Source of the DNA: Escherichia phage phT4A
Sequence record: NC_055712.1
Reading direction: 5' to 3' (one strand)
DNA: 64,000 bases
Shown piece by piece: positions 41,596 through 50,938 of the stretch. The notes beneath the pieces are model-generated. The model searched no databases. It saw nothing but the letters and a program-made list of their open reading frames with translations, and was not told the DNA's origin. Position numbers and translations under genes: made by a program. Within the stretch, counting starts at the first letter, position 1; the number at the start of each line of letters is the position of its first letter.

Positions 41596-42435
41596 TCAAC
41601 CCCAAGTGTCAGTTTTCGGTGCGTATGCTGCAACTTTAGCCACAATTTCCTTATCCAGTTCAGCTACAGATTTCTGAGGCTTACCACGGGCTTTAACTTT
41701 GATGTAGTTTGACTTAACAACAAACATCCCTTTGTTACTTGATTTCTTGATCTCGCTATCAACACCAACTTTGTTAAAGCTGATCCAAATGTCGCCGTCC
41801 ATATACTGTTTAAGAGAATCACCCATGTTCAGGATCTTCGCCATAGTAAGGGCCGCGCCTTCGTGGGTATCCATGAGAATTTCTTTAGGAACTACACGAT
41901 CGCGTTTCTGGTTCTGCTGCATAGCAATATGCACATCGTTCATAACCCATACGATATGTACGTTTTCTTTTTTGTATCCCAGCGTTTCGACATCACGTGC
42001 GATGCTTGCCAGCTTGCTCATGCCTTTTAACGTTACGTCAAAGATGAGGTTAGGTTTACGATCTTCTGGTGCTGCCATAATACCGGAATAAACACGGTTT
42101 TGGTTTTTGTTGGAAATGTTGAAAACGTCGGCGATCACATGATGGAGGGTAGATACGTTTTCTGGGTTTTTGAGGTTCATTGTTTTGACATCATGACCCG
42201 TTTGTTTCTTGATCTCTGCTGCGAGTTTATCGCTACCCATTACAAGTTTTTTCAGGGCGTCAACGTCCAGGGTAATACCTTCGATGCCTAGCAGTTTTTC
42301 CAGTGTGAATCCTTTACCGGAACCAGCACCGCCAGCCAGAATAACAACCTGACCGAACTTAGGATAAGCACGGCCCCCGAAGGTGATCAGCGCTTCGGTT
42401 AAGGTGCTTTCTGTGAATTGTTTAAATGACTTCAT
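41596..42435 (-). CDS. P-loop NMP-kinase-like protein
   Basis: 279 aa; ILAGGAGSGKGFT resembles the adenylate/NMP kinase P-loop GxPGxGKGT; function inferred from motif only. Confidence 0.4.
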   Translation of the reverse strand: MKSFKQFTESTLTEALITFGGRAYPKFGQVVILAGGAGSGKGFTLEKLLGIEGITLDVDALKKLVMGSDKLAAEIKKQTGHDVKTMNLKNPENVSTLHHVIADVFNISNKNQNRVYSGIMAAPEDRKPNLIFDVTLKGMSKLASIARDVETLGYKKENVHIVWVMNDVHIAMQQNQKRDRVVPKEILMDTHEGAALTMAKILNMGDSLKQYMDGDIWISFNKVGVDSEIKKSSNKGMFVVKSNYIKVKARGKPQKSVAELDKEIVAKVAAYAPKTDTWG

Positions 42436-42467
42436 GTAAAATTCTCCAGTTTATTTTCTATTATTTA

Positions 42468-42497
42468 TTGACATGCTTTCTGACAGTGGTGTATGGT
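42468..42497 (+). promoter_or_regulatory. sigma70-type promoter TTGACA-18-TATGGT
   Basis: In divergent intergenic region upstream of the 42550 gene. Confidence 0.35.
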
Positions 42498-42549
42498 TAT
42501 GGTGTTCGACGGATAGGCCGGAAGAACTTTAAACCATAAGGTATACGAT

Positions 42550-43425
42550 ATGAAAATCAATTTACATCGCTTCATTGTAGAATTTTCCCGCGACCGCGAC
42601 ATGGACTCTTTCAACTACTACTCCCGTGAAATTGAAGATCGTTTTGCGGCTCATGTTGGGTTCCGTCGCCACCATACTCCTAAAATGCGCCCTGACCACG
42701 ATCCGAAGTATAGCCCTATCACATGGCAAGCCCCGATCAATGGTTACGTTGAAGGGATCCGGATCATGACTTTTAACGCGATGTATGGAAACGCTTTGAT
42801 CCATATTGCACGTGAGAAAAGGGCAGAATTCCCTAACGGCTGGCGTATTGATGAAGTGATTCAAACCCTTATGCAGTTACGACGTGAATACAAAGCTGGT
42901 ATGTGTCTGCGTAATGAACAGTATCCGATGTATAAAACGTATGCCTATATCTCTAAGCATCTAATTAATTCCATGTTTTACATCGTTGGTAATCATGGTT
43001 CCGCTATAGATATCGGTTCTTATGAAATCGTGGCTTATGCTCGCGAACAAGGAAAGGCCGCTGCACTGAAAATCATTGAATCTGGTGCTATCATTCTTAA
43101 CCATCGCATTGATACTATTGCTTACTATGGCGATCAGGTTGAGGTTGAAGGCGTACACCATGAACGATTCAACAAAGCCGTATTTGCTAAAAATGGTTAT
43201 GCTTATGGTAATGACATTATAACTTCTGCTATTCCTTTCGTTCGTCTAACTGTTGAAGGATTTGGAGAAAGGTTGCCTTATAAACTGTCAGAAGCTCAAA
43301 TGTGTGCGGCTGCTGAAAGAATCGCCAAAAAGCGGAAAATGTATACCGATGAATACCTGGCGTATGTCAACAAGACAAAAGAAGATGTAGATCGAGAAAT
43401 TTCTTGCATGGATTTGTGCCTTTGA
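42550..43425 (+). CDS. hypothetical protein
   Basis: 291 aa; no family recognised. Confidence 0.5.
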   Translation: MKINLHRFIVEFSRDRDMDSFNYYSREIEDRFAAHVGFRRHHTPKMRPDHDPKYSPITWQAPINGYVEGIRIMTFNAMYGNALIHIAREKRAEFPNGWRIDEVIQTLMQLRREYKAGMCLRNEQYPMYKTYAYISKHLINSMFYIVGNHGSAIDIGSYEIVAYAREQGKAAALKIIESGAIILNHRIDTIAYYGDQVEVEGVHHERFNKAVFAKNGYAYGNDIITSAIPFVRLTVEGFGERLPYKLSEAQMCAAAERIAKKRKMYTDEYLAYVNKTKEDVDREISCMDLCL

Positions 43426-43457
43426 TATAATGTAAGCATCTTTTAAAGGGAGGATGC

Positions 43458-43775
43458 ATGAAAACGATACATTGCAGAAATGAAAACGTTGTTTACTATC
43501 ACGGTTCGTGTACTGCTGCTGGTATTGAAAGCATGTTATTGCCTCCCTGTGATTCTGATACTCTGTCTGAAAAAGGCAGGAAGAAAAATTTAGACCGTGT
43601 TTTCTTTACCGCTGATATCGGGTTAGCTCGTATATACGCTGGAAGGGCCGCGCGTTCTATAGGTGGGGAACCTGTTCTGTACAGGGTTGTGTGTCCGGTT
43701 GATGTTGTATGCATGAACGAAGACAAAGGCGCGAGCGTTTACCATGCAGCATGGGCGTTTTGTGAGGAATTATGA
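43458..43775 (+). CDS. small ADP-ribosyltransferase-like protein (Arr-like candidate)
   Basis: 105 aa, strong GGGAGGA RBS; motif series YYHGS ... VFFTAD ... LYRVVCPVD resembles the HGT ... YFSA ... YxVEP pattern of Arr-type minimal ADP-ribosyltransferases; recalled similarity, not searched. Confidence 0.3.
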   Translation: MKTIHCRNENVVYYHGSCTAAGIESMLLPPCDSDTLSEKGRKKNLDRVFFTADIGLARIYAGRAARSIGGEPVLYRVVCPVDVVCMNEDKGASVYHAAWAFCEEL

Positions 43776-43948
43776 ATGATAAAGTGTTGGCGTATCTCGT
43801 TTTCTTGCTGGGATATCGCTTAGAAGTGATGGGCGCGTATTCATCAATGTATGGTGATTTAACGGCTATCTGGATGGTTGGGTTAGGGGTTGCTTTTACA
43901 TTCCTTTCCTTTGCAATTGTTAATGAATCGGAAAAGGATATTGTATGA
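43772..43948 (+). CDS. small membrane protein (two predicted TM helices)
   Basis: 58 aa, ATG overlaps preceding stop and its stop overlaps next ATG (ATGA); hydrophobic VLAYLVFLLGY and LTAIWMVGLGVAFTFLSFAIV; below ORF-track cutoff. Confidence 0.4.
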   Translation: MNDKVLAYLVFLLGYRLEVMGAYSSMYGDLTAIWMVGLGVAFTFLSFAIVNESEKDIV

Positions 43949-44271
43949 AACTATATCATGTGATCTACTCTGGTGTTTTAGGCATTGACAAACAAATGTT
44001 AGTTGATGTAATGTGTAAAAAACTCGATGAGCGAATTGGAACCCGATACAAAAATCATGTATCGGAAAGTATCTTCATCAACGTTGACCATCCAAATGAC
44101 ATGGAAGAAATGGTTAATACTCTTGATGATCAGCAGATCCCGTTTGTTGACAATTTCAACATGAGCGCTGGAGTGTATACGGTAGTAACTTTTGTTCTAA
44201 AAAATGTTGACAGCCGAAACGATAGCGTGTTGAATGTAGTTGCAAAAATCGATTCTACCAAAGGAAAATAA
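43945..44271 (+). CDS. hypothetical protein
   Basis: 108 aa; translationally coupled. Confidence 0.5.
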   Translation: MKLYHVIYSGVLGIDKQMLVDVMCKKLDERIGTRYKNHVSESIFINVDHPNDMEEMVNTLDDQQIPFVDNFNMSAGVYTVVTFVLKNVDSRNDSVLNVVAKIDSTKGK

Positions 44272-44272
44272 T

Positions 44273-44629
44273 ATGAAAATTGTACACCGTAGCATTTCCG
44301 AACTGTCTCAAGCTGAAAAAGTGCAAATTCATTTCAAATTCAATGATTTGCGTAAAGGTTATGCCGAAATTGCCCGTGAACATGGGTTAGATAACGGCGA
44401 TATTTACCAGGTAGTACAGGAAATTGAACGTATCCGCGCGTTCCGTTCTGCAAATCTCCCTGTTAAAAATGCAATGCGCCGCGAAGCGATCGAAATCCAT
44501 CGTAAGCGTGTGTACAATTTAGAACGTGCTAAACGTCCGATGAAGAAAGAAAAGAAACCTCGTCCGTTTAAACGTGAACATCTTAACACCTCTATGGCGC
44601 TGGCGTTTCAAGATGCGGGGATTATCTAA
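44273..44629 (+). CDS. hypothetical protein with basic C-terminus
   Basis: ATG 44273 with GGAAA RBS; 118 aa. Confidence 0.5.
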   Translation: MKIVHRSISELSQAEKVQIHFKFNDLRKGYAEIAREHGLDNGDIYQVVQEIERIRAFRSANLPVKNAMRREAIEIHRKRVYNLERAKRPMKKEKKPRPFKREHLNTSMALAFQDAGII

Positions 44630-45153
44630 TGCGTAAATCTGCGATGGATCGTTGGGCTAGTATTGCTACTTCAAACGTAAAACCAAATCAAGCCGCACCT
44701 GATGTAGAAGCGGTTCGTAAAGCAAAAGAACCTGAGATCGTGGCCCTTAGCCCTGAACTCATCGAGCATCGCCGTCGTGCGTCTGCTATTGAACTGGATC
44801 TGCGTATTGCGCGTTCATATAATCTCAAGCATGAACACGCCGCAAAGAACAACCATTCTTTTGACCTTACTCTGGAAGATTGGAAAGTGTTGATGACAAC
44901 TGAACGTTGTCAGTATTCCGGCAAGATGTTTAGCAATAAACCAGGTAGCCCATATGCCCGTACAATGGAACGTATTAATCCACGTCTGGGATATACACAA
45001 GAAAATACAATAGCGGTTATCAACGCCGCTAATGCCGAAAAATCACAGCTTGATGCATTCGTTAAGGGTGATGTCATTCTGGATGAAGTAAAAGTGAAGT
45101 TGCTGCGTAAAGCACTTTATCAAGTCGAAAAACGTGTGAAAATGAAAGGTTAA
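44629..45153 (+). CDS. hypothetical protein with degenerate HNH-like segment
   Basis: 174 aa; CQYSGK...MERINPRLGYTQENTIAVINAANAEKSQ resembles the HNH spacing but lacks the His/Cys ligands. Confidence 0.45.
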   Translation: MRKSAMDRWASIATSNVKPNQAAPDVEAVRKAKEPEIVALSPELIEHRRRASAIELDLRIARSYNLKHEHAAKNNHSFDLTLEDWKVLMTTERCQYSGKMFSNKPGSPYARTMERINPRLGYTQENTIAVINAANAEKSQLDAFVKGDVILDEVKVKLLRKALYQVEKRVKMKG

Positions 45154-45156
45154 ATT

Positions 45157-46176
45157 ATGTTTAAGAAATATTCTTCTCTGACTAACCATTATGAAGGTAA
45201 GTTCATCAATGGTGTAATTATGAACGGGCTTACTGGCGGTGTGTGGGTTGCACGTGAAAAGATCCACGGTGCTAACTTTAGTTTTATCACCGATGACGGT
45301 ATTACCGTTACCCCCGCAAAGCGTACTGATGTTGTTAAGCCAGCCGAAGATTTTTATGGCTGTTCAGCAGTAGTTGCAAAGTATTCCCCAGGGATCCGTA
45401 AGATGTGGGAAACCCTCAAAAAGACCGGAACTTATGATGATTTGGTTATTCAAGTCTACGGTGAATTTGCGGGGCGCGGTGTACAGAAAGATGTTGATTA
45501 CGGCGAAAAAGATTTCTATGTATTCGATATCCGTGTAAATGGTGAATTCCTTCCGGATAACCTGTGCTCGCTGATCTCTCGATCTCATGGCCTGAAAATG
45601 GCCCCGCTGTTGGGATATGGTACTTTTGAAGAGATCAAAGAACTGCCGATCACGTTTGAATCTGTTGTGAATAAAGCAAATAGCGGCATTGGTAGCGATA
45701 ATACAGTATATGGTGAATTCGTATATCCTATCATGGAAGTTGAAGAGGGCAACATTGCAGAAGGTTTTGTAATGAAACCTGTTTCACCTGCTTTTATGCC
45801 AAACGGTGAACGCGTTGCAATCAAATGCAAAACAACCAAATTCACTGAGAAGAAAGCGAAGAAAGCAACCCGCTTTAATGCTCCGGTTTCATTGTCAGAA
45901 AAAGACAAAAACCAACTCGATGAGTTTGTTTGTTACCTTACAGAGAACCGTGTGAAAAACGTTCTTTCGAAACTGGATCTGGCTTCGATCACTGCGAAAG
46001 ATTTTGGTCGCATTATGGGCTTAACTGTTCAGGATGCTATCGAAGAAATCAGCCGTAATCACGGGCCTTTCCTCGAACAGTTCGAAGACCCAGCAATGGC
46101 TAAGAAGCTGTTTGTAACCGAAGCCCAAAACATGATTCGCCCTGTATGGGGCAAAATCCTGAACCATGAATTTTAA
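45157..46176 (+). CDS. rnlB: RNA ligase 2 (RnlB)
   Basis: 339 aa; MFKKYSSL...GGVWVAREKIHGANFS (ligase motif I K-x-H-G), KDFGRIMGLTVQD; close to T4 Rnl2 (334 aa). Confidence 0.88.
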   Translation: MFKKYSSLTNHYEGKFINGVIMNGLTGGVWVAREKIHGANFSFITDDGITVTPAKRTDVVKPAEDFYGCSAVVAKYSPGIRKMWETLKKTGTYDDLVIQVYGEFAGRGVQKDVDYGEKDFYVFDIRVNGEFLPDNLCSLISRSHGLKMAPLLGYGTFEEIKELPITFESVVNKANSGIGSDNTVYGEFVYPIMEVEEGNIAEGFVMKPVSPAFMPNGERVAIKCKTTKFTEKKAKKATRFNAPVSLSEKDKNQLDEFVCYLTENRVKNVLSKLDLASITAKDFGRIMGLTVQDAIEEISRNHGPFLEQFEDPAMAKKLFVTEAQNMIRPVWGKILNHEF

Positions 46177-48083: not shown

Positions 48084-49517
48084 ATGAACAACAAAACTTT
48101 CGAAGAACTGAACAGCATCATCACTTCCGTAGATTCCTATAAGGTTTCTCACTGGTCGCAATATCCAACTGGCTCCGAAGAGGCGCTGTTTTATATTGAA
48201 TCTCGTGGTGGTAAATTTGATCAAGTAGTTACGGCTGGCTGTAACCGCCTTGCGCAAATCCTATCACGTCCGGTGACTATGGAAAACGTAGATTTTGCTA
48301 ATCGGTTGTACAAAATGCACTTTGGGCGCGAAATCTTCAACTACAAAGGTTGGAAAGAAATTGCAGAACTGGGTTACATCCCTCTTGAATTCAGAGCGAT
48401 TCCGGAAGGAACCCCAGTAGCGGTTAAAAATCCGGTTGCAACTTTCCATGCTGGGAAAAATGCGCTGTGGTTAGCAGGACACGTAGAAACCCTGGCGATC
48501 AGGGGAGTATGGTTCCCTTCAACCGTAGCAACTCTATCCCGCGAATGTAAAAAAGTGTTGAAGAAATATCTCAAGAAAACCTCCGATCTCGAAGGTGAAG
48601 CATTTGATATGGTATTACGTACCCGTTTGCATGACTTCGGCGCACGTGGAACCTCTTCTGCTGAATCTGCTGGTATTGGTGGCCTTGCTCATCTGTATAA
48701 CTTCCTCGGTACTGATACCGTAGAAGCGCTGATTATGGCTATCTCTCTGTTTGAAGATTGTCAGAAAGCGTTTGATGATGGTGAAATGGCGGCTGGTATT
48801 TCAATTCCTGCTCGCGAACATTCCACTACCGTTTCTTACGGCAAAGAAAACGAAGACCTTGCATACAAAAACAGTATTGAGATCTTCGGTGAAGGGATGT
48901 ATGCATGTGTGTATGATTCCTGGGATTTTAAAGCGGCGGTTCGCCGTATCGCAGAATATAAAGATTCTATTCTTTCTAAGGGCGGTACTCTGGTAGTTCG
49001 TCCGGATTCTGGCGATATGGTAGACAATATCATGTACGCTCTTGAAGAACTGGGCCGTATCTTTGGCTATACAGTGAACTCAAAAGGGTATAAAGTACTA
49101 CACCCAGCAGTAAGGATCATTCAAGGCGATGAAATTCATGGCCCTGAAACAATCAATCGGGTGTTGAACTGGATGGAGTCTAACCGTTGGGCGTCTGAAA
49201 ACATCGCGTTTGGTATGGGCGGCGGATTGCTTCAAGAAGTTACCCGCGACACTCAAAAATATGCGATGAAAATGTGCGCAATCAAAATTAACGGTGTGTG
49301 GACTGGTGTGTATAAATGTCCAAAAGGCGCTGAATGGAAAAAGAGTAAAAAAGGGTTGTTAATGACTATCACTGATGGTGTTAACTTTAAAACCATTGAT
49401 ACTCTGGAACAGAAAGTGCCGGAAGGCTGGAAAGATGCTATGATCACATACTATGTCAACGGAAAGATTACTGCCCGTGACACTTTAGAGGAAATTAGGA
49501 ACCGTGCCGGGATTTAG
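48084..49517 (+). CDS. nadV: nicotinamide phosphoribosyltransferase (NadV / NAMPT family)
   Basis: 477 aa; NAMPT-type motifs (RLHDFGARGTSSAESAGIGGLAHL, GMGGGLLQ). Confidence 0.8.
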   Translation: MNNKTFEELNSIITSVDSYKVSHWSQYPTGSEEALFYIESRGGKFDQVVTAGCNRLAQILSRPVTMENVDFANRLYKMHFGREIFNYKGWKEIAELGYIPLEFRAIPEGTPVAVKNPVATFHAGKNALWLAGHVETLAIRGVWFPSTVATLSRECKKVLKKYLKKTSDLEGEAFDMVLRTRLHDFGARGTSSAESAGIGGLAHLYNFLGTDTVEALIMAISLFEDCQKAFDDGEMAAGISIPAREHSTTVSYGKENEDLAYKNSIEIFGEGMYACVYDSWDFKAAVRRIAEYKDSILSKGGTLVVRPDSGDMVDNIMYALEELGRIFGYTVNSKGYKVLHPAVRIIQGDEIHGPETINRVLNWMESNRWASENIAFGMGGGLLQEVTRDTQKYAMKMCAIKINGVWTGVYKCPKGAEWKKSKKGLLMTITDGVNFKTIDTLEQKVPEGWKDAMITYYVNGKITARDTLEEIRNRAGI

Positions 49518-49806
49518 TATCCGCAAAAACGACAAAGGAACCGTGATTTTCTATGACAACATGCCCCTTGTAGCTCGCAAGGGGCTTTTTGCTAAAATCG
49601 CTGGGTATTCCTTTAAACTGGAAGAAGTCAACGACGAAACACTAAAAGAGATCGTAAGAATTGCCTTACAGTTAAGAGGTAAGAAAGACGAACAAAAAGC
49701 TATTGACATGATCAATAAATTGGGTGAAACTCAATGCTTCATAGTGAATCGTGGTTACAAGTACGATACCATTGCAAAATTTGAAAAAGGGCTTTGTGAA
49801 TTATGA
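49504..49806 (+). CDS. hypothetical protein
   Basis: 100 aa; GTG start with AGGAA RBS, overlaps nadV end. Confidence 0.4.
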   Translation: MPGFSIRKNDKGTVIFYDNMPLVARKGLFAKIAGYSFKLEEVNDETLKEIVRIALQLRGKKDEQKAIDMINKLGETQCFIVNRGYKYDTIAKFEKGLCEL

Positions 49807-50654
49807 GTTATTATGGTGTGATCCCATACACAGGAAACAAGCAAAAGCTACTTCCTGAACTGTTCAAATTATTTCCAGACAGAAACAGCTATATGCGATT
49901 CATCGACTGTTTTTGTGGTGGTTTGAGTGTGTCGCTAAACGTCCCTAAACCCGTTCTAAGCAACGATTACGATCGGACGTTGATTGATATGTATAAGCGC
50001 CTTCAAATGCTTCCTGACCTCTCTCCTGTGCGAGAATTGATTAAACAGCATGGTCTGGGTAAGAACGAGAAAGAAGCGTATCTCACATTTCGTGATGCGT
50101 ATAATAAGAACAAGGATCCTCTATGGCTCTACGTTCTGATCCTTCATTCGTTTAGTAATGTTAATCGAACCAACGATAAAGGCGATTTTAACGCCAATTT
50201 TGGTTGTAGAACGTTGAATGATTCTACCGTTAAACGGTTTGAACACTTCAAAAATAATGTTCGGGGGATTGAATTCTCTAGCGCATCGTTTAAGGATCTT
50301 GATATCTGTTTGAATGATTTTGTGTACTGCGATCCGCCGTACCTGATCACTGATGCAGTTTATAACAAGTTCTGGAACGAAGAACGCGAGCATGAATTAT
50401 ATGATTTTCTCGATAATTTAAACTCTGATGGTATCAAGTTTGGTTTATCAAACGTGACACATCATGCAGGAAAGCAAAATGATATCCTGATCGAGTGGAT
50501 GCAAAAATATAATGTGCATAACCTCGATAAAAAGTATCTGTTAGGCCAGCATACTGATTCTTACGAACAAAATAAAACGCAAGAAGTCTACGTGTGCAAC
50601 TACCAGAAACGCGACGTAAATACATACCCTGAAACACTGGATGACTTAATGTAA
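49803..50654 (+). CDS. dam: DNA adenine methyltransferase (Dam, GATC-specific)
   Basis: 283 aa; extensive similarity to T4 Dam (YTGNKQKLLPEL, FCGGLSVSLNV, DPPY motif VYCDPPYLIT). Confidence 0.9.
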   Translation: MSYYGVIPYTGNKQKLLPELFKLFPDRNSYMRFIDCFCGGLSVSLNVPKPVLSNDYDRTLIDMYKRLQMLPDLSPVRELIKQHGLGKNEKEAYLTFRDAYNKNKDPLWLYVLILHSFSNVNRTNDKGDFNANFGCRTLNDSTVKRFEHFKNNVRGIEFSSASFKDLDICLNDFVYCDPPYLITDAVYNKFWNEEREHELYDFLDNLNSDGIKFGLSNVTHHAGKQNDILIEWMQKYNVHNLDKKYLLGQHTDSYEQNKTQEVYVCNYQKRDVNTYPETLDDLM

Positions 50655-50662
50655 GGTAACAT

Positions 50663-50938
50663 ATGTTTAAGATTTTTGGTTATATCCCTTCTGTTTACAA
50701 TTGCGCTCCATGCCTGAATTCTAAACGTCTCCTGGACGCAAAACGAAAAGAATATGAGTTTGTTTCTGTAGCCGATGAAAAAGACGCAGACGGCAAACCG
50801 ATCCTGAATGAAACGGTCATTTCTGAACTCGAAAGCCTGTTAGGTACTCGTAGACTGACCATGCCTCAAATTTTCCACGATGGTAAGCACATCGGCGGCT
50901 TTGACCAACTGCGTGAGTACGTTCGCACGTTGGGATAA
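50663..50938 (+). CDS. nrdC: NrdC thioredoxin/glutaredoxin
   Basis: 91 aa; CAPC active site; MPQIFHDGKHIGGFDQLREY matches T4 NrdC. Confidence 0.85.
   Translation: MFKIFGYIPSVYNCAPCLNSKRLLDAKRKEYEFVSVADEKDADGKPILNETVISELESLLGTRRLTMPQIFHDGKHIGGFDQLREYVRTLG

Follow-up and report, generated by a model that had tools for sequence, protein, structure and literature searches.

Members of the p0068-like family are counted, as a prediction, among the commonest viral ADP-ribosyltransferases (ARTs) in the 2022 survey by Iyer, Burroughs, Anantharaman and Aravind (PMC9503650), where the family is assigned to the H-Y-[EDQ] clade. For phages of Escherichia, Shigella and Salmonella, the same survey describes a pair of a p0068-like ART and Dmd, and proposes that the ART is a toxin and Dmd its antitoxin (PMC9503650). 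The window analyzed here is a 64,000-nucleotide stretch of Escherichia phage phT4A (sequence record NC_055712.1). It encodes a 105-amino-acid (aa) protein that, judged by its sequence, is a member of the p0068-like family, has an ART fold and is a distant homolog of Arr. The ART families of the 2022 survey were reportedly first defined in a 2015 review by Aravind. On balance, the protein is probably an early-expressed minimal ART that binds NAD+ and mono-ADP-ribosylates a conserved host or defense molecule. The ART prediction is not new, having been published in 2022 (PMC9503650) and entered in some GenBank annotations; as a sequence finding, the call repeats a published computational prediction. 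The gene is located as follows.

43458-43775, + strand: 105-aa open reading frame (ORF) for a minimal p0068-like protein with the ART fold, kin to Arr and Tpt1

T4-like phages are the classic model of ADP-ribosylation in host takeover, through Alt, ModA and ModB, which are NAD-dependent ARTs used early by these phages. Alt, ModA and ModB belong to the R-S-E clade and are ~200-680 aa in length, and Alt is packaged in the head, whereas the window protein is a minimal domain with an H-type signature. It is not an Alt/Mod protein, because its motif 1 reads H-G-S and it has no R ... S-x-S ... E-x-E signature. Pfam and PHROGs gave no link to the Alt/Mod families, and fold and profiles place the protein instead beside Arr and Tpt1, as expected from the original prediction of a type distinct from Alt, ModA and ModB. 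The p0068-like ART is a fourth, unrelated ART type, and T4 has none at the corresponding junction, where dmd directly follows gene 41. AcrIF11 (PDB 6KYF), an anti-CRISPR mono-ART of ~130 aa, is also counted among the closest known systems.

The source phage of the window is a T4-like Slopekvirus; across positions 42400-45200 it matches Klebsiella phages Roth22, Roth23 and others at 100% identity and phage Miro at 99.5%. Close homologs of the 105-aa protein, at 65-100% identity, were found in 608 phage records, with hosts that include Escherichia, Klebsiella, Acinetobacter, Aeromonas, Enterobacter, Shigella, Vibrio, Yersinia, Proteus and others. ZZ1p0068 of Acinetobacter phage ZZ1 was matched with an E-value of 5.1e-43, at 69% identity over the whole alignment and 76% in a local BLASTP alignment over 90% of the query. 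Its UniRef name is 'ADP-ribosyl transferase', and the GenBank records of Phynn, Konradin, Octan, Xman and VAC13 carry a (putative) ADP-ribosyl transferase label. In Mosigvirus and Dhakavirus records the ART gene lies directly upstream of dmd, as the published account describes, and the p0068-like identification is secure because this ART-then-Dmd order recurs there. The window protein and the published family share their size, their T4-like phage hosts and the coliphage gene order. They differ in that T4-like members read H-F-[S/T] rather than H-Y-[EDQ] and have Arr and Tpt1 as their nearest solved structures; unlike in the published ART-Dmd pair, the downstream partner is not conserved, and in the window it is a 58-aa membrane protein. 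The position of the ART gene varies by lineage: it is found in the 41-61 region, near tk, or in the region of hoc/inh-srd. In the RB43 record the ART ortholog is said to resemble RB69ORF040c. This ortholog was recovered by tblastn in two pieces and is annotated with 95 aa, which could reflect a frameshift, a sequencing error or decay.

The fold was modeled with AlphaFold2 (AF2) from 32 homologs, giving a predicted local distance difference test (pLDDT) score of 85.6 and a predicted template modeling (pTM) score of 0.78. The elements run strand-strand-helix-four-strand, as in a minimal ART, and form a split beta-sheet NAD-binding fold. Foldseek against the PDB ranked Arr first (2HW2 and 9IAF; probability 0.99-1.0, template modeling score 0.55-0.57), followed by Tpt1 and ARR-2. 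Against BFVD, the first match beyond close homologs was a 94-aa phage protein named after Arr (E 1.8e-7). When 1.84 billion representatives were searched exhaustively with a profile, 236 relatives were returned, and the link to Arr at the profile level emerged only once this search had broadened the family. The 100-sequence family profile was aligned by hhalign to the single ARR-2 sequence with a probability of 96% and an E-value of 4.5e-9, family residues 7-84 lying on residues 14-89 of the 150 in ARR-2. With a narrow alignment the probability was only 24%, and the 32-homologue profile had no significant match in the PDB. The comparison with Pfam PF12120 proposed in the original prediction failed for the query itself and succeeded for distant relatives: 3 of the 32 close homologs matched (best E 0.013), the query did not, and relatives found at E ~1e-27 exceeded the gathering score on the same domain (26.9-31.5 bits vs 25). 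The Arr-like call is right as far as fold and remote homology go, because the fold search and the profile evidence agree. A minimal Arr-like ART fold had been predicted from the letters of the DNA, and both structure prediction, with Arr as the top PDB match, and the alignment of the family profile to ARR-2 bear it out.

Four groups of codons carry the predicted active site.

43500-43508, + strand: codons of H15-G16-S17, ART motif 1; H15 aligns with H22 of ARR-2, equivalent to H19 of Arr-ms

43599-43610, + strand: codons of V48-F49-F50-T51, ART motif 2, on strand 2; F49 stands at the Arr Tyr49 position

43626-43637, + strand: codons of A57-R58-I59-Y60; A57 is the counterpart of Arr Ala57 on the floor of the nicotinamide pocket

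43734-43736, + strand: codon of S93, just before predicted strand 5 and, from the predicted secondary structure, at the putative canonical catalytic-Glu position

Across 100 family representatives, H15 and G16 were invariant and position 17 was T or S. By analogy with His19 and Gly20 of Arr, H15 would be the NAD-binding His and the backbone of G16 would contact the nicotinamide site. The F49 column holds F in 98 representatives and Y in 2, and the T51 column T in 97 and S in 3. Both HMMER and hhalign alignments place F49 on Arr Tyr49 and H15 on Arr His19. HGS at residues 15-17, F-F-T-A at 49-52 and a Phe on the Arr Tyr had all been read correctly beforehand. The third motif was given as Y-x-V-x-P; a corresponding motif is present, but the query has Y75-R-V-V-C-P80, or Y-x-V-x-x-P, and the predicted form occurs only in remoter relatives. 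A57 was kept in 99 of the 100 representatives and Y60 in all of them. Y60 is a second aromatic, 11 residues past F49; the two tyrosines that stack on nicotinamide in diphtheria toxin (Y54/Y65) and in PARP1 (Y896/Y907) are equally spaced. In Arr, Ala57 lines the nicotinamide pocket (bioRxiv 10.1101/2025.02.20.639278).

The near-invariant positions across the representatives are H15, G16, [T/S]17, P29, P30, T33, E38, R41, K43, N44, V48, F49, T51, A57, Y60, A61, R63, G69, G70, G91 and V94. An E-x-G-R..N loop is common to the 105-aa family and the D-loop region of Arr. The ART gene is constrained like a core gene: its ratio of nonsynonymous to synonymous substitution rates (dN/dS) is ~0.05, and between phages that infect Klebsiella, Escherichia, Acinetobacter, Aeromonas and Proteus the identity is 65-100%. 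The dN/dS values were 0.04-0.055 against RB16 and GAP161, comparisons with other genera being saturated at synonymous sites. The NAD-pocket residues, to which the original prediction had tied the ART reading, are present: H15-G16-S17, F49, T51, A57 and Y60 are kept under very strong purifying selection.

The fifth strand is predicted to span residues 94-97. Position 93, directly before it, is S or T in 32/32 close homologs and Glu in 18/100 representatives, mostly copies in giant proteins. Among copies inside proteins of at least 900 aa, 9/12 have Glu (P0131, P0158, P0172, P0188, P0191, P0194, P0198, P0201 and P0219). This suggests two functional grades within the family, with Glu in giant polyvalent copies and Thr or Ser in stand-alone phage copies. 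Other candidate acids are D/E88 (27/32 close homologs), D82 (29/32), the invariant E38, and E103, whose invariance is limited to the T4-like subfamily.

The p0068-like domain also occurs within larger proteins. In one architecture it follows Phage_portal_2 and precedes a 2H/Acb1-like domain; in others it is found with ART-PolyVal, NUDIX or CHAP, with GNAT and Toprim, or with DUF7178 in phage polyvalent proteins. Beside stand-alone relatives in metagenomic contigs, no macro-domain, ARH or NADAR partner was found, only small unannotated phage genes. Portal and polyvalent fusions, together with these partnerless settings among small genes, fit an injected or early effector. The metagenomic protein P0166 (954 aa) joins a lambda-type portal, a p0068-like ART domain and a 2H/Acb1-like phosphodiesterase; it is a head-packaged fusion of an ART and a probable cyclic-nucleotide-degrading domain.

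Two signals precede the ART gene in the window.

43404-43431, + strand: promoter-like site read from the sequence, TTGCAT (43404-43409), a 16-nt spacer and TATAAT (43426-43431)

43448-43453, + strand: Shine-Dalgarno sequence GGGAGG, 4 nt 5' of the ART ATG

The 291-aa ORF upstream ends in a stop codon at 43423-43425, and the TATAAT directly follows it. A stricter sigma-70 scan omits the site because only 3/6 bases of its -35 match. The 85 nt upstream of each ART ortholog were compared, and in 9/10 other lineages read they hold a GTTTAC[A/T] or GTTGAC -35, ~17 nt and a TATAAT-like -10 directly upstream of the gene. The sole lineage of these 10 without promoter-like elements upstream of the ART is a Vibrio phage. 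In EcWhh-1, phiR1-RT and PEi20 the promoter-like site is preceded by a terminator-like hairpin. In T4, sites of this kind are known as early promoters. The ART gene keeps a T4-early-type promoter in nearly every lineage, whatever its genomic locus, and from these upstream sequences the gene seems to carry an early promoter along with it.

The fold, homology, pocket conservation and genomic context are shown, and from them we infer an activity, a time of expression and a class of target. An early promoter of its own would drive the gene from the onset of infection. Its product would bind NAD+ and move ADP-ribose onto a conserved host or defense macromolecule, in host takeover or counter-defense. 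Since the canonical Glu is replaced by Ser or Thr, mono-ADP-ribosylation is expected. The ADP-ribose would then go to a reactive nucleophile, for instance a phosphate or carboxylate; alternatively, catalysis would be substrate-assisted.

Several observations weigh against this reading. The query alone had no significant match in Pfam, NCBIfam, PADLOC or PDB sequences, and residues 31-50 of the AF2 model, the counterpart of the Arr D-loop, were of lower confidence. A literature search returned no experimental study of any p0068-like member. The triad Tyr is a Phe in the T4-like family. No acidic third catalytic residue is conserved family-wide, and Arr Asp84 aligns with a hydrophobic column at about M86. 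Arr needs its H19-Y49-D84 triad to be active (Baysarowich 2008, cited in PMC13246000). The original prediction had been cautious about activity on account of the Phe, and the caution is justified, by the Phe and also by the lack of a conserved acidic third residue. Since Phe stands in 98/100 representatives, however, it is the family norm and no lesion peculiar to this gene. A Phe at F49 could still stack on NAD+, with the hydroxyl lost.

It is possible, though doubtful, that the T4-like H-F-[S/T] minimal ART has dispensed with the catalytic acid and acts by a chemistry undescribed for phage ARTs, for instance by ADP-ribosylating an immune signaling molecule or the phosphate of a nucleic acid or nucleotide. 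It would then be a widely conserved immediate-early counter-defense, shared by over 600 sequenced Straboviridae, RB69 among them. RB69-type phages offer a tractable setting for the p0068-like ART. The identity of its substrate would add a new host-takeover or anti-defense reaction, and would also show whether an ART with Phe and Ser/Thr for Tyr and Glu is active.

The protein might instead be a non-catalytic binder of NAD+ or of an ADP-ribose (ADPR) derivative, acting, for example, as a sponge for an ADPR-based immune signal or as a decoy that blocks a host NAD-using defense protein. Phages are known to make sponges for ADPR-derived signals, an established class (for example PMC13243611). A very small, highly conserved protein would suit such a role, as would the Phe in the triad and the Ser or Thr found at the Glu position in every close homolog, while giant polyvalent copies keep Glu. 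Yet the invariant H-G-[ST] and both aromatics are typical of active ARTs, and acids are available at D/E88 and E38. Inactivity does not follow from the loss of the canonical Glu, since Arr also lacks it and uses Asp84 of a neighboring loop. A pure binder is unlikely on this evidence, and a catalytic mono-ART is preferred.

Another alternative takes the protein as a Tpt1/KptA-like NAD lobe that ADP-ribosylates a terminal RNA or DNA phosphate, in RNA repair or end-capping with a nearby RNA ligase 2. Tpt1/KptA has two lobes, the N-terminal RNA-binding lobe carrying the catalytic Arg-His-Arg-Arg. The likeness is to the NAD-binding C-lobe (PDB 9LD3, 7KW9 and 8TG3), and only ~75 residues of the window protein align to a 179-aa chain. 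The 105 residues make up an NAD lobe only, and the protein is not a Tpt1 because it lacks the N-terminal RNA lobe. Foldseek and profiles both favor Arr over Tpt1. The gene is not reproducibly linked to RNA-repair genes, standing between 41 and 61 or near tk in most lineages and not beside an RNA ligase. A role of this kind is improbable.

Arr (PF12120; PDB 2HW2, 9IAF and 9IBA) is nearest by profile and by Foldseek, and resembles the window protein in being a minimal single-domain ART with H-G-[ST], an aromatic-x-[ST] on strand 2, Ala57, the E-x-G-R..N loop and a (V/I)-x-P strand. The window protein, however, has 105 aa vs ~143 and is without the C-terminal third of Arr; the alignment is limited to Pfam model positions ~1-67/99. 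It has Phe for Tyr49 and no equivalent of Asp84, and relatives score ~26 bits against NCBIfam rifampin_ARR (NF033144), where the cutoff is 130. It is not Arr proper, because it falls short of these thresholds and lacks Tyr49, Asp84 and the C-terminal part; nor does it come from a resistance gene, its gene being an early one of a phage. An Arr-type ART directed at a small molecule, whether rifamycin-like or another anti-phage metabolite that it would inactivate, is therefore very improbable, the more so as fusions with injected polyvalent proteins point to macromolecular targets.

The ART gene overlaps the first of two further ORFs.

43772-43948, + strand: 58-aa ORF, small hydrophobic protein, PHROG 7619

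43945-44271, + strand: 108-aa ORF, PHROG 7467, next gene of the early cluster, given for context only

Both junctions, 105-aa/58-aa and 58-aa/108-aa, are ATGA overlaps, and the three ORFs, the ribosome-binding site and the overlaps were all found in the sequence as predicted. In Roth22/Roth23-type records the 105-, 58- and 108-aa ORFs are each labeled hypothetical protein, and their PHROGs (2110, 7619 and 7467) are all function-unknown. The 58-aa ORF had been called unannotated, which is incorrect, as public records have it as a hypothetical protein. It is a real gene, with a dN/dS of 0.075-0.18 and conserved R16, E18 and D29-L-T-A-I-W-M-V. Two hydrophobic helices had been predicted. A strong transmembrane segment is present at residues ~30-50; the N-terminal hydrophobic stretch at 5-19 is shorter and marginal and is broken by the conserved R16 and E18, so that the reading of two transmembrane helices is only partly secure.

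The proposed functional coupling of the ART and the 58-aa protein was not upheld. The 58-aa gene adjoins the ART throughout Slopekvirus and in RB16 and GAP161. By tblastn, however, the 58-aa protein was found in 174 phage records, all in the Slopekvirus/Pseudotevenvirus group, vs 608 for the ART, and the gene after the ART differs in other lineages.

RB43: 45-aa ORF inserted between the ART and the 58-aa gene

GAP161: 58-aa gene after the ART, then an additional gene before the 108-aa homolog

Mosigvirus and Dhakavirus: Dmd after the ART

Acinetobacter phage Octan: 36-aa ORF after the ART

Aeromonas phage 65: 124-aa protein after the ART

Yersinia phage phiR1-RT: 96-aa protein after the ART

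Edwardsiella phage PEi20: gene annotated spackle after the ART

Aeromonas phage Aes012: gp30.6-like gene after the ART

Vibrio phage 501E54-1: no same-strand gene after the ART, the next gene being convergent

Of the same-strand junctions in the annotated neighborhood 5/11 overlap, so the ART/58-aa overlap is ordinary gene packing. The two genes share a transcript and are probably translationally coupled. A dedicated toxin/antitoxin-like or enzyme/anchor pair, for which the ATGA overlap, the adjacency in Slopekvirus, RB16 and GAP161 and the proposal of dmd, the gene at the same position in coliphages, as antitoxin to the p0068-like ART by Iyer et al. (PMC9503650) would speak, has very little probability given the 174/608 records, the intervening ORF in RB43, the differing or absent downstream genes, the presence of dmd without the ART in T4 and the generic overlaps. 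The 58-aa gene is a separate, lineage-specific early gene and no dedicated partner of the ART. Dmd as an obligate antitoxin was also rejected: T4 has dmd without an ART there, and the window has the ART with no Dmd detected in its 64 kb.

Other genes lie nearby. Directly upstream of the ART, a 291-aa protein (42550-43425, PHROG 7439) had no Pfam, NCBIfam or PADLOC match. A gene occupies the same position in RB16, RB43 and GAP161, and the 3' end of the window copy holds the putative ART promoter -35. Divergent from the ART cluster, positions 41596-42435 on the - strand encode a 279-aa zeta-toxin-like P-loop protein (Pfam Zeta_toxin, E 2.8e-7), which is named 'anti-RM protein dam3' in some Roth records and hypothetical in others. 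The product of 44629-45153, annotated 'decoy of host sigma70' (Srd-like), also matches PHROGs for HNH endonuclease, endonuclease and endonuclease VII (E 2e-20 to 6e-7), and may be a nuclease-fold protein and not solely a sigma decoy. A nicotinamide phosphoribosyltransferase (NAMPT_N and NAPRTase) is encoded at 48084-49517, on the same strand and 4.3 kb downstream of the ART, so the phage has NAD+ salvage capacity besides the putative NAD+-using ART. Beyond it come genes for a Dam-type methyltransferase (49803-50654) and for a glutaredoxin (50663-50938).

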